Shown: positions 499-57,220, numbered from the whole stretch's first letter. The stretch is DNA of 62,803 bases, filler included, from Reclinomonas americana ATCC 50394 (GCA_048213135.1; 7 parts of 3 records of this genome joined end to end with filler, not necessarily neighbours in it); one strand, 5' to 3'. Made by a program: numbers and translations. The notes: generated by a model not told the origin, from the letters alone.

Positions 499-3400
499 AT
501 GGACGCGTACCTGGAGAGCCTTGGTGCACACCGCCGCATCCGTCGCATTCTGATTGCCAACAATGGTCTGGCGGCCGTCAAGGGCATCCGATCGATGCGC
601 ATGTGGTGGAACGAGCATCGTGCACTCCGTCAAGGAGGCGATGCCGATGAAATGGGCAGCTCACGCGATGAAAGTGCCATGATATGCAAGGGAATTGATG
701 ATGATGAACTGGTGTTTGTGGTGATGGCGACGCCGGATGATTTGCGCGCGGGAGCGGCGTTTGTGCGGCTGGCGCAGGAGATTGTGGAGGTGCCGGGCGG
801 GAGGAACTTGAATAACTATGCGAATCCTGAGCTGATTGTGGATGTGGCTGTTGGTGAGTGAGTGAGCGAGAGATGGAGATGGGGGGAAGGAGAGAGAGAT
901 ACGGGATTGTCGGAGTTGAGAGATGGAGAGAGGGCGGAAGGGAGGGAGGGAGAGAGCGGCATGAGGCTTGCAGGATCGCCATCTGAGTTCATTGTAGGGC
1001 TTTGCAGTTTCAGAGAGTAAGAGAGTGGCATGGCAAGGAAAGAAATCTGAAGCTTGCATGATGCTTGTTTCAGATTTCTTTCCTTGCCTTCTCAATCCCC
1101 CTCTGAAGCTGCAAAGCCCCTACAATGGACTCAGATGGCGATCCTGCAAGTCTCATGCCGCTCTCTCCCTCCCTCCCTTCCGCCTCTCTCTTACTGGAGT
1201 AGAGAACGAGAAGCAAGGCAACTGTAAGAGACGTGAAGCTTGCAGGATCGCCACCAGAGTTCACTGTAGGGGGTTTGCAGCTCCAGAGAGTAAGAGAGTG
1301 GCAGGGCATGAGAATGAGATCTAATGCTTGCAGGATTGCCCATTGAGTTCATGCAGTTTGTGAATGAGCGAGAGGGAGAGACATGAGCCCTCTGCTTGCA
1401 TAAGATCATCTTGTAGTTAGCGAGAGACAAGGCAAGAAAGAGGAAGAAACATGAGACTTGCTGTATCGCCATCTGAATTCACTGCAGGGGCCTTGCAGTC
1501 AGTGTGAGGAAAATGCTATCGCCGTTAGAGTTCACAAGCTGGCCCTGCAGTGAGTGTGAGGAGAATGCAATATGAGACTTGCAGAATCGCCGACAGACTT
1601 TGCTTGAGAAGCCTTGCAGTCTACATAACACGCCATCCAAAGCGGAGCCACTCACTTCTCTCTCTCTCTCTCTCCCTCTCTCCCCTTCTCTTTCTCTCTC
1701 CCTCCCTCCCTCCCCCCTCTCTTTCTCCCTCTCCCTCTCTTCTTCCCCACCTCACAGCCCGTCGCGTGGACGCTGTGTGGAGTGGCTGGGGTCATGCATC
1801 GGAGGACCCACGATTGCCGGAGCTGCTTGGCGAGCGCGGTGTGGTGTACCTCGGCCCGTCGGCGCACTCGCAGCGTGCGCTCGGTGACAAGGTGTCGGCG
1901 TCGATTCTGGCGCAGAGTGCTGGCGTGACAACGGTGGCGTGGAGTGGCGACGGGCTGGTGGTGGAGGGTGCCGCGAATCATGCGCACGGCGACGCACCGT
2001 TGAGTGTGGCGCCGGCATTGGCGGCACGTGCGGCCGTCGGCTCCGCGCAGGAGGCTATTCGACACGCGGAACGCATCGGGTATCCGGTGGTCCTGAAGGC
2101 CAGTGAAGGTGAAAAGATGCAGGATGCACCACCTATTGTTGTTGCCGCCTGTCGCTGACGCGCGAATCGTTGCAGGTGGCGGTGGCAAGGGCATTCGCAA
2201 GGTGATGCGCTCGGAGGACATGGCTCGTGCCCTGGCACAAGTGCAGTCGGAGGTGAGGGGAGGTTCTTCGAGGGATGCATGTCGTCATCTTTCGTGAGCT
2301 CACCACGTCGAGTAGGTGCCTGGTTCACCGATTTTTGTAATGCGCGTTCTCGAGTCGGCTCGCCACATTGAGGTGCAACTGCTGGCCGACGAGCATGGTG
2401 GAGTGGTGGCACTGTGGACACGCGACTGCTCCGTGCAGCGTCGCCACCAAAAGATCATTGAGGAGGGTCCAGCCGATGCTGTGCCGGCGCCGATTTTGCG
2501 TGAGATGGAGCAGGCCGCTGTGCGCCTCGCCAAGCTGGTCGACTACCGCAGCGTCGGCACTGTGGAGTACCTGTATACGCCCACCGGTTGGACATTCCTG
2601 GAGCTCAATCCGCGTGTGCAAGTGGAGCATCCGTTGCGTGCCTCGATCACTGAACGCACGCACTCCGGTCACTCATTGTCGAATTTGTCGACACTGCAGA
2701 GTCACGGAGGGCATTAGTGGAGTCAACATTCCCGCCGCCCAATTGCTGGTCGGCATGGGCATGCCACTCGGCAAGTTGCGTCGGTCCTTTGTGATGGAGT
2801 TGGAGATGGGTTGGAAGCTGACGACTCGTGTGTGTGTGTGACACAGCATTCCCGAGCTGGGTCGCCTGTACGGTGCCGATCTCAGTCTGCAGCCGGTGCC
2901 ACGCGGCCATGTGATTGCCGCTCGCATCACCGCCGAGAACGCAGACGAGGGTTTCGTGCCAACGACGGGTTCGATTGAGGAGATCTCGTTCCGCAGTCAG
3001 CCACACGTGTGGGGCTACTTTTCGTTTGAGCATCGCGGCTCGGTGCACCAGTTTTCCGACTCACAGTTTGGTCACATTTTTGCGCGCGGTGAGTTGCCCT
3101 CTTGGTGTGAATGTCAGCGTGCCCAGCACACTGCTCACTCATGCTTGGCGGCAGGCGAGACACGAGAGGAGGCGCGACGACGATTGATTTTGGCACTGAG
3201 CGAGTTGGTGATTCGCGGTGAGATCTACAACTCGGTCGGCATGGTGCGCAAGTTGCTGGAGAGCGAGGACTTTGCCAAGAATCGCCACGACACACAATGG
3301 CTCGACCGCATCATCAGCAAGTCGGTGCGCGCCGATCCGCCCGACTTTATGTTGGGAGTGGTGTGCCGCTGTGTGCAGTCGGCGTACGATTCGAGCCGAC

Positions 3401-55402: not shown

Positions 55403-57220
55403 ATGCATTCTCTCGCTCGCATCAGGGCGTGTCGAACACGTCGCGTGCCCCACTATGTCATTCGACCTGATCTGCCAGCGTTGCCAACACCACTGGAGGT
55501 CACTGAGGATGGCTTTCGCGAACCCACCGCTGCAGTTTCGTTCCTCGCGTCTCACACACTCTCTCTTTCACGCACACAACTCTAGTTGTTGTTGTGTAGG
55601 AAATGGCTGCTGCTGTGAGCCCCACATACATCGACCCTGATCCATTCGCCCTCTTGCATCGTGATCAACCGCTGCGCTGGGACACGCGATTGCCGCACTT
55701 GCCGCCCATCTCCGTTCTCAAAGACACGCTGACGGTGCTGTCGCTGTGTTCCACTGGATGGGTCGCCAAGACGACGTTGGAGGTCGGCAATCGAGTCAAG
55801 GTGCGTGCGCAGTAGTCTGTGAGACCGCGTGTTTTTCGCGAGTGGTGTGATGACAGTCCGGGCGCAGACGTACGACGCAAGTCGGTTGCACGGCTACATG
55901 TTTGGCGATCGGGGAGGGCGTGGACTGCTGACGGTCAGTTGGTGTACAGTGTGCCACTGAGTGGAGGAAGCAGACGACTCATTGCTGTCACAGATTGCCA
56001 ACCATCAGTCGATGGTCGACGAGCCGGCGTTGCAAATGACCTTTGTGCCCTACACTGCACTGTTGGCACCGTGGACTGTTCGGTGTGTGTGTGTTGATTC
56101 GCCTGCTCGCTTCTCTTGTTCTATGCGTATGCTGATAGGCTGGGTCGCAGACATGCCGTGGCCGCCGCCGATGTGTGCTTCAAACATGCGGCGTTGGCGT
56201 TCTTGTTTGACAAACTGCAAGCGATTCCTGTGCGCCGTGGAGAGGGCGTCATGCAGGAGGTGAGTGGTGAGTGTGGCGAGCACACAATGTGGCGATGCCT
56301 GACGTGACTGCGTGTCTGCAGCCGCTTCGTGTGGTTGTCGATCACTTGCAAGCTGGTCACTGGGTGCACTACTTTCCGGTGCGTCCACACAAAGTCTCTC
56401 AATCTCTTTCTTTCGCTGTCGTCGTGTTTGCGCGTTTCTCAAGTCGCTCTCACTGCAGGAAGGTAAAGTTTGGCAGGATGGCGACGTGCACGCATGCCGT
56501 CTCGGTGAGTGGCGGGATTGTGCGTGTCGCTCGAGGAATCACAAACTCACAACGCGGCAGGCATTGGACGACTCATTGTCGACACGGTGCTGGATGGCGG
56601 TCTTGGTCCGCTCGTAATGACACTCTGCCACATGGGCATGCATCTGGTGGCTCCATTCGGCCAGTACTGGCAGTTCGGCAACAAGGTGGTGTCGCGCGTG
56701 GGCCAAGTCGTTTCCTTTGACTCGTTTGTGCGTGACTTGGCCGCCCAAGGCCTCACTCGGTGCGTGCGCGTGTGTTGACTGCCCCCGTACGCGGCCGCTG
56801 ATGATCTGAACCCACGCACCCCCCGGCCGCNNNNNNNNNNNNNNNNNNNNNNNNNNNNNNNNNNNNNNNNNNNNNNNNNNNNNNNNNNNNNNNNNNNNNN
56901 NNNNNNNNNNNNNNNNNNNNNNNNNNNNNNNNNNNNNNNNNNNNNNNNNNNNNNNNNNNNNNNNNNNNNNNNNNNNNNNNNNNNNNNNNNNNNNNNNNNN
57001 NNNNNGCTCGCAGTGTCGACATTTACAAGCGAGTGGCGGCGCGTGTGGAGAAGCTGTTGCACGAAGACTTTGCGCTGGTGCGCGCCGTCTGGGACGCATG
57101 GGAACACAAGACGCAAGCCGCGCCACCGGCCACCATCCCCGGCGTGCCCGACTATGACCCACAAAAGCTGACTGATCCACCGAAACTCACGTACTACTTG
57201 CCGCCAGCTCCAGTGCAATG
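55403..57220 (+). CDS. TAZ: Tafazzin (cardiolipin transacylase)
   Basis: GLLTIANHQSMVDEP (HxxxxD), AAADVCF, IPVRRGEGVMQ, LQAGHWVHYFPEGKV, GIGRLI. The start may be 55403 or 55603. Confidence 0.9.

Follow-up and report, generated by a model that had tools for sequence, protein, structure and literature searches.

Do introns whose 5′ splice sites seem to carry one surplus T form a donor class of their own, and if so, where is the cut made and how would the spliceosome find it? This question is raised by a stretch of 62,803 nucleotides from Reclinomonas americana ATCC 50394, in the following called the window, for which an initial annotation had listed 24 donors of the GTTGCGT, GTTGAGT and GTTTCGT kind beside the ordinary ones. 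In this study, we followed up this proposal with gene models, donor statistics and protein homology across exon junctions. Judged from the sequence, these donors with the extra T, here termed slid donors, are a genuine class and occur well beyond chance. As the annotation had suggested, they represent a second, discrete class, in which the usual consensus lies one base further inside the intron and the first intron base, a G, takes the place of the customary G at exon position −1. Once slid, this consensus agrees with the standard one at 8 of 9 positions, exon side included.

The window is eukaryotic nuclear DNA with about 57% G+C outside 5,061 N, in which intron-rich genes are tightly packed. 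Its introns are mostly 55–90 nt long and end in YAG, with a CTSAY branch motif 12–31 nt away; the gene for acetyl-CoA carboxylase (ACC; 0.5–10.4 kb, + strand) alone contains 29 short introns. Gene identities were assigned by running Pfam on stop-free open reading frames and on exact exons. Gene models were obtained with a dynamic-programming parser using open frame, codon bias (trained on 1,461 Pfam-matched codons) and GT...AG only. Without a 3′-end model this motif-free parser was judged too noisy, and a second version additionally contained a model of the 3′ end and branch site, derived from 24 introns with strict GTG[CA]GT donors. The donor-neutral parser was given nothing about donors except GT and predicted 115 introns. 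For comparison of donor models, each donor received the better of two scores, one from a standard position matrix and one from a version of it shifted by one base to admit a fixed extra letter.

For a curated census, we started from the parse that permitted the T-inserted model. An antisense model taken as an artefact (described below; except its intron at 36485), introns outside 45–160 nt, a bridging intron at 43668 and introns bordered by an exon of <10 nt were excluded. By hand, the introns at 43388 and 12989 were added, that at 6838 was set to 74 nt, and a 438-nt intron of the GAPDH gene at 31980 was added later. In the census, a donor counted as slid if it had T at +3 and G at +6 but lacked G at +5. 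Thereby, 111 introns were classified into 73 standard (G at +5), 27 slid and 11 that were neither. The slid share is thus about 23% of the curated introns (25–27 of 111–112), and at least 8–9 of 115 in the motif-free parse. By gene, it amounts to 9/29 in ACC (with the ambiguous donor at 4300 included), 1/10 in GAPDH and 1/6 in a CTD small phosphatase gene; in a gene for an EF-G/GFM2-like factor (40.6–43.5 kb, − strand) the classifier gives 1/10, or 2/10 when the GTTGCAC donor at 43388, filed as "other", is counted.

The standard donors follow the consensus NNG|GTGCGT (or GTGAGT), with C at +4. Their tails at +3 to +6 are GCGT (25), GAGT (10), GTGT (9) and others; the last exon base is G in 67 of 73, and the base before it is A in 24, T in 23, C in 17 and G in 9. 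The word GTGCGT occurs 143 times on both strands of the window. Since a C at +4 cannot pair with textbook U1, the U1 of this organism may differ. Several donors of the window lead directly into (GT)n microsatellites.

All 24 listed coordinates carry GTT on the strand assigned to them. Exact GTTG[CA]GT is present at 16 and a one-letter variant at 8, the latter being GTTGCGC (6838), GTTGCGG (12989), GTTGAGC (29839), GTTTCGT (38826 and 55535), GTTGCGA (39010), GTTACGT (46683) and GTTGCAC (43388, − strand). Ten of the 24 were hit exactly by the neutral parser (2633, 3505, 5122, 6119, 8069, 32528, 39010, 39205, 46683 and 43388(−)), which also placed the unlisted donors 41454(−), GTTGCGT, and 62482(−), GTTGCGA. 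The comparison with chance that the annotation had called for came out clearly: exact GTTG[CA]GT donors numbered 8 among the 115 introns of the neutral parser, where 0.22 are expected from base composition (P ~1e-10) and 0.52 from the 7,748 GT dinucleotides of the window (Poisson P ~8e-8). In the same parse, the combination of no G at +5, G at +6 and T at +7 was found in 9/27 donors with T at +3 versus 3/88 of the others (Fisher 9e-5). With both strands counted, GTTG[CA]GT is found 35 times in the window; 16 of these occurrences are curated donors, and only 2 fall within sense exons. Raw counts of related words (GTCGCGT 16, GTGGCGT 25, GTTGCGT 24) are not decisive, because GTCGCGT and GTGGCGT occur in coding sequence.

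The kind of inserted letter also matters. With the standard matrix only, the parse scored 2288.3 bits, and with an inserted T 2481.7 bits (+193; 31 introns in the slid class). Decoy insertions reached 2301.4 bits for A (+13), 2351.7 for C (+63) and 2319.3 for G (+31), and the introns called by these decoy models were mostly odd-length replacements (43–390 nt) of introns with GTT donors. Individual slid sites scored −9 to −11 bits under the standard model versus +3 to +9 once slid. Their introns are 57–86 nt long against a standard median of 71, length being outside the parse score. For a given acceptor, a standard-like alternative donor in frame exists in only 2/28 slid introns, and 6/28 lack any further in-frame GT. 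The tails of slid donors at +4 to +7 (GCGT 13, GAGT 3, TCGT 3, GCGA 2, others) mirror those of standard donors at +3 to +6.

Where the cut lies was read from protein homology. With a cut before the intron G, junctions are residue-exact at 2633, 32528, 16173, 43388, 46683, 3505 and 5122. Thereby, the junction motifs VEHP|VTE, SPDA|PMYVMG and HSSFR|PV named in the initial annotation were corroborated by homology tools, while RDGK|VLL found weaker confirmation. In ACC, intron 2633..2699 (+; cc|GTTGCGT, 67 nt, phase 2) was picked by the neutral parser and has no alternative in-frame GT; its upstream exon ends at residue 369 of chain 3gid_A (..VEH), P 370 comes from the split codon, and residues 2–23 of the downstream exon correspond to 372–393. 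At 3505..3571 (+; tt|GTTGCGT, 67 nt, phase 0), another pick of the neutral parser, positions 53–87 of the ACCA_BT profile are filled by 35 residues. At 5122..5190 (+; cc|GTTGCGT, 69 nt, phase 0), again with no alternative in-frame GT, the ACC_central profile is matched from 158 to 212 (212/213 at the junction) and then from 214 to 290. In the GAPDH gene (31.5–33.5 kb, +), the exons around intron 32528..32601 (+; ct|GTTGCGT, 74 nt, phase 0) align with residues 106–140 and then 141–175 of 4k9d_A, and with 94–128 and then 129–162 of human 1u8f_O. The phosphatase intron 16103..16173 (−; ga|GTTGAGT, 71 nt, phase 0) separates matches to residues 5–35 and 36–51 of 3l0b_A; the second of them is a weak one of 16 residues (E 0.9–1.2), and all 8 matches were to the same protein. 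Intron 46683..46768 of the RPL32 gene (+; ag|GTTACGT, 86 nt, phase 0), picked by the neutral parser, lies where 20 residues fill positions 30–49 of Ribosomal_L32e.

For the EF-G-like factor, a profile was built from 73 EF-G proteins out of 80 bacterial loci fetched. This gene contains the listed intron 43331..43388 (−; ca|GTTGCAC, 58 nt, phase 1) and the additional one 41394..41454 (−; ca|GTTGCGT, 61 nt, phase 0), which the profile confirms. The model with both GTT donors spliced scored 649.5 bits in one domain, that without the 43388 splice but with 41454 kept 642.8 bits in one domain, and the model with standard donors only 630.2 bits, split into two domains. Splicing at 43388(−) yields LRN[I]..., by which the RNIG motif becomes gap-free against the bacterial consensus. 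In a gene with a CH domain, finally, intron 29839..29921 (+; aa|GTTGAGC, 83 nt, phase 0) has profile positions 3–34 at residues 9–40 of the 41-residue upstream exon and positions 37–89 from residue 2 downstream, i.e. a junction of 34/35 and then 36/37, with weak E-values.

A cut one base later (TT...AGN), which would give a messenger of equal length, was also considered and rejected. Conserved junction residues would be replaced by it in GAPDH (P of PMYVMG), the phosphatase (P of PVEG.DFIIPVE) and EF-G (I of RNIG), and its 3′ ends would be inconsistent (AGA, AGC, AGG, AGT). The conserved residues and the uniform 3′ ends thus support GT-AG introns with the cut before the G.

As donors, the listed sites fared unevenly. 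Contiguous homology backs 8 of the 24 (2633, 3505, 5122, 32528, 16173(−), 43388(−), 46683 and, weakly, 29839), and a further 10 are backed by their reading frame, by codon bias and by a well-formed 3′ end (2775, 6119, 6838, 8069, 8900, 12989, 38826, 39010, 39205 and 45250(−)); among these ten, 39010 is the only one for which a standard-like alternative donor exists in frame. Five of the ten lie in ACC. Intron 2775..2846 (+; aa|GTTGCGT, 72 nt, phase 2) was chosen by the slid-model parser, other donors being poor, and its junction is not residue-exact because of a deficit of 11–18 residues in a variable loop (PDB coordinates). At 6119..6176 (+; ga|GTTGAGT, 58 nt, phase 2; neutral parser), ACC_central position 499 lies at residue 2 of the downstream exon, and no profile match was found upstream. 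For 6838..6911 (+; aa|GTTGCGC, 74 nt), the 19 positions 645–663 of ACC_central are fitted by 19 residues with the acceptor at 6911, as against 12 with that at 6932. The exon upstream of 8069..8150 (+; ga|GTTGAGT, 82 nt, phase 2; neutral parser) aligns with yeast ACC through its last residue; with its downstream exon, searched to an E-value of 10, no ACC chain was recovered but only chance matches to leucine-rich repeats, and Pfam gave no match. At 8900..8956 (+; ca|GTTGCGT, 57 nt, phase 0; alternative donors poor) the fit is approximate, with the Carboxyl_trans profile matched to 242 and again from 259 and 12 residues in between.

The other five are spread over three genes. Intron 12989..13054 of a WD40 (GNB1L-like) gene that is flanked by N runs (+; ca|GTTGCGG, 66 nt, phase 2; no alternative in-frame GT) joins the frames as GGWDG[H]VRVY; the WD40 profile is matched to 33 upstream and the next repeat begins downstream, a weak match and an approximate fit. 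The gene at 38.5–39.5 kb, whose exons match no Pfam family, has three such introns: 38826..38887 (+; ca|GTTTCGT, 62 nt, phase 0), based on frame and coding score; 39010..39079 (+; at|GTTGCGA, 70 nt, phase 2), a pick of the neutral parser with its alternative donor at −27; and 39205..39281 (+; ct|GTTGCGT, 77 nt, phase 1), also from the neutral parser and with no alternative in-frame GT. In an EMC6/RAB5IF-like gene, intron 45184..45250 (−; tt|GTTGCGT, 67 nt, phase 2) is placed by frame and coding score; EMC6 positions 1–25 are matched by the upstream exon, and the downstream exon has no Pfam match.

Three further listed sites were selected only with the slid model permitted. Two are in a GMF-like gene, 47495..47557 (+; ga|GTTGCGT) after a micro-exon of 20 nt and 47599..47678 (+; cc|GTTGCGT) after one of 41 nt, the exon following the latter matching Cofilin_ADF 28–61 from its residue 7. 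The third, 55535..55599 (+; ca|GTTTCGT, 65 nt), lies upstream of a tafazzin-like coding region and was recognized by motif, length and 3′ end; with an ATG after the acceptor, it is probably an intron of the 5′-untranslated region (UTR) or a first intron. At the remaining three the motif is present. GTTGCGT at 29561..29567 (+) in the CH gene has just 5 coding bases (ATGGC) upstream, and GTTGCGT at 31004..31010 (+), claimed as a 5′-UTR donor upstream of GAPDH, is outside the coding signal. GTTGAGT at 20473..20479 (−) is unsupported as a donor, an open, codon-biased frame being found on neither side.

Beyond the list, the analysis yielded slid-type sites at 41454(−), described above, 51172(−), 50375(−), 62482(−) and 36485(−). 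Intron 62400..62482 (−; ac|GTTGCGA, 83 nt, phase 1; neutral parser) has a strong coding score on both sides. Candidate 36421..36485 (−; at|GTTGCGT, 65 nt) is a weak one, found by the slid-model parser only, with a modelled upstream exon of just 13 nt. Two slid donors lie in a large gene at 48476–53561 (−) without Pfam match, in which six exons are exactly 123 nt and others 126, 246 and 249 nt long, with phase-1 introns between them, so that it looks like a 41-residue repeat with one unit per exon. Its intron 50311..50375 (−; ac|GTTTCGT, 65 nt, phase 1) preserves exons of exactly 123 nt on either side, like the neighbouring repeats; 51108..51172 (−; ct|GTTGCGT, 65 nt, phase 0) was chosen by the slid-model parser, alternative donors being poor.

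The exon side sets the two classes apart most sharply. Slid donors had been described as following a non-G exon base, and this held: G stands at −1 in 1/27 slid versus 67/73 standard donors (Fisher 3e-17), and in the motif-free parse in 1/9 versus 33/35. The sole slid donor with G at −1 is that of RPL32 at 46683. When the window donors with T at +3 (n=38) are split as the annotation had proposed, G at −1 is found in 9/9 with G at +5, such as GTTCGT, GTTTGT and similar donors, versus 1/27 with G at +6 (P 1e-7). The −1 base of slid donors (A12 T9 C5 G1) resembles the −2 base of standard ones.

From these patterns we consider it fairly probable that slid introns are spliceosomal GT-AG introns whose 5′ signal is recognized by U1 one base downstream. 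The two classes would then be one nine-letter word differing at one position, NNG-G-TGCGT versus NNGTTGCGT (NNG-T-TGCGT). In the slid word, the only GT begins one base earlier, and a cut there would give NN|GTTGCGT. U1 would pair with the word as usual, which relative to the cut places the pairing one base downstream: G+1 would take the U1 C that normally lies opposite exon G−1, U+2 would be mismatched, and U+3 G+4. G+6 U+7 would pair as +2 +3. +5 +6 usually do. Later, U6, U5 and Prp8 would fix the cut at the available GU. We infer U1 as the reader, with a single U1 serving both registers, and the slid class would allow introns to follow exons whose last base cannot be G. For a representative site and a U1 5′ end taken from PMC4856993, the slid register has a predicted pairing energy of −2.2 kcal/mol and a register with a looped-out U one of +1.7 kcal/mol; the organism's own U1 may differ. 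Genes for U1, U6 or other snRNAs were not found in the window with Rfam, either at the gathering thresholds or at E up to 1.

The looped-out U just mentioned is a competing reading. In it, U1 would stay in its ordinary register at G+1 and U+2, a U at +2 or +3 would bulge, and pairing would resume at G+4. The number of base pairs equals that of the slid register, the register is known from human sites (68 with a predicted bulge at +2/+3 and 51 with one at +3, according to the accessible part of PMC4856993), and only T was found as the inserted letter, as a U beside a U could bulge at either position. However, such a duplex would still gain a G:C pair from G at −1, so that this base should have been kept as in standard donors, which is contradicted by 1/27 against 67/73 and, among donors with T at +3, by 1/27 against 9/9. 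Bulged A, C or G at +3 should be tolerated as well, yet none was seen, and the textbook energies given above point the same way. The near-absence of G at −1 thus favours the slid register over canonical pairing with a looped-out U, which we regard as quite unlikely. Another possibility, in line with the variant U1/U6 snRNA or relaxed spliceosome suggested in the initial annotation, is a separate reader, either a second U1 variant that matches GUUGCGU in the normal register or a definition mainly by U6, U5, proteins or branch site with a minor role of U1. It could draw on the weak pairing of textbook U1 with slid sites (mean −1.5 kcal/mol), on the C at +4 by which even standard GTGCGT mismatches textbook U1, and on possible snRNA changes that Irimia and Roy raised for the GTGCGTG donors of Ostreococcus, as the available sections of PMC2483917 state. 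No observation counts against it directly. As the 8 of 9 shared consensus positions are explained by a single reader, a separate one is less economical, and we judge it unlikely.

An artefact would mean that gene models are wrong, or that assembly or sequencing errors have added a T to ordinary donors. The sequence is indeed a draft with N runs and what look like artificial contig linkers, and a few sites depend on the motif alone. Yet nine junctions are homology-exact (eight listed ones and 41454), and a base miscalled from G to T at +1 of standard sites would break the frame of in-frame models. Stray T insertions would need to have struck some 25 donors independently, sparing those with G at −1, while 26/28 have no standard-like in-frame alternative donor and 6/28 no other in-frame GT to fall back on. 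An artefact is hence highly improbable. Two other identities were rejected. U12-type donors are of the RTATCCTT type, and none of the 28 slid intron starts has such a donor. When the 111 curated introns were compared all against all with blastn, the only matches were (GT)n microsatellites and a single stretch of 21 nt common to two standard introns of ACC; with so little sequence shared, the introns are not a transposon-like (introner) family.

Several points weigh against recognition by U1 in a slid register or against the size of the class. All junctions were derived from frames, codon bias and homology, and the 27 slid donors of the census go back to a parser to which the slid model was available. 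Two of the 27 are ambiguous, namely 4300 (versus 4306) and 26940 (a standard donor 6 nt upstream), and 36485, 47495, 47599 and 55535 have the motif as their support. The −1 statistics of the curated set are slightly circular, as the donor model has an exon term; those of the motif-free parse are not. Textbook U1 pairs weakly with slid sites (mean −1.5 versus −6.7 kcal/mol for standard sites), and without an A at −1 the best predicted U1 duplex is a 3-bp stub. In addition, U6 is reported to pair with the G at intron position +5, with the cut a fixed distance upstream, for yeast and human in the accessible part of PMC11162779. If U6 measures from the G, the conserved G at +6 would require a second adjustment at the U6 stage, either a U6 helix that copes with an offset of one base or a bulged U.

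In human genes, shifted-register 5′ splice sites were reportedly described by Roca and Krainer in 2009, and bulge-register sites are said to have been described by Roca in 2012. According to the available text of PMC4856993 and PMC11162779, U1 in the human shifted register binds one nucleotide downstream and the cut is set later by U5/U6, and non-canonical registers together account for about 1.5% of human sites (PMC11162779). This agrees with the statement in the initial annotation that shifted or bulged pairing exists but is rare. As in the window, GU remains both the start of the intron and the place of the cut at these human sites, and the rest of the signal fits U1 one base downstream. 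They differ by their rarity, as far as these two sources go: here, about 23% of the curated introns are concerned, with a tight consensus of their own and a near-absolute bar on G at −1. The bulge +2/+3 sites of Tan 2016 (PMC4856993, accessible part) look like a U inserted after GU, as in the window; their register retains the canonical pairing at −1, +1 and +2, against which the near-absent −1 G of the window argues. In the STAT3 tandem donor (PMC11162779, same sections) the issue is the same, namely whether the distance from the cut to the U6-paired G can vary by one base; in that donor, which concerns a single human exon, the G is nearer to the cut by one base (+4), while in the window it is one base farther (+6) in a whole intron class.

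For Ostreococcus lucimarinus, a GTGCGTG donor consensus is given for most chromosomes (Irimia and Roy 2008, PMC2483917, in its accessible part). The GTGCGT(G) core is that of the standard class in the window, and a CTSAY-type branch signal near the 3′ end is also shared. In contrast to the intron-rich window, that genome is intron-poor outside chromosome 2, and the available sections do not mention a T-inserted class. In the literature within reach of our search, which left most subscription journals outside its scope, no GTTGCGT/GTTGAGT donor class was found in any organism, and GUUAAGU/GTTAAGT was not used as a donor consensus. Work on shifted or bulged registers in the same literature consisted of human studies plus a tunicate paper mentioning the idea, with no lineage-wide use. 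The slid class represents a new and abundant form of splice-site recognition of an already known type.

The remaining content of the window is briefly described here. Pfam placed an MACPF-domain gene at about 22–23 kb (−) and an SNF2-type helicase at 33.7–35.5 kb (−), besides ATG12, RPL32, the CTD small phosphatase and others. The late-added GAPDH intron at 31980–32417 (+; 438 nt) consists nearly entirely of CT-rich simple repeats and has the donor gag|GTTTGT in the standard register. Within the first ACC intron of about 900 nt, an inverted repeat (933–999 / 1118–1184) has 67-nt arms that are 97% complementary. Plant miRNA-precursor models match both of its strands below gathering (MIR1437, 116 vs 168 bits), and it is probably a MITE-like hairpin rather than a curated miRNA. 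The antisense model mentioned above (36064–38201, −) is S/F/L-rich and lies opposite the K/E/D-rich low-complexity N-terminal region of a + strand gene at 37090–39469; it was taken as an artefact, save for a 3′ part at 36.06–36.9 kb that may be real. Six identical spacers were found at 15144–15243, 33597–33696, 39486–39585, 47804–47903, 53564–53663 and 59700–59799. Each is made up of 44 N, TTAATTAATTAA and 44 N, and since this 12-mer has a stop codon in 6/6 frames, the spacers look like artificial contig linkers. One of them interrupts the GMF-like gene, the coding sequence of which resumes beyond it.

For the organism, the further-reaching proposal is that its lineage uses two fixed registers, with about 1/4 of the introns slid, G at +6, and a ruler at the U6 stage that routinely tolerates a one-base offset; we put this forward tentatively, with slightly less than even confidence. 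Such a two-register system may be accompanied by a changed U1 5′ end, U1-C or U6. For annotation, gene finders with a single donor model will misplace slid junctions, as is seen from the standard-only parse, which broke EF-G into two domains and gave odd-length introns. The question addressed is what U1 contributes to the choice of the 5′ cut site compared to U6, U5 and Prp8, and this choice has so far been studied mostly on a few engineered or rare human sites. If the proposal is true, a genome with 1/4 slid introns would provide natural test cases by the hundreds to thousands, and it would make a clear prediction about the U1 and U6 of this organism.

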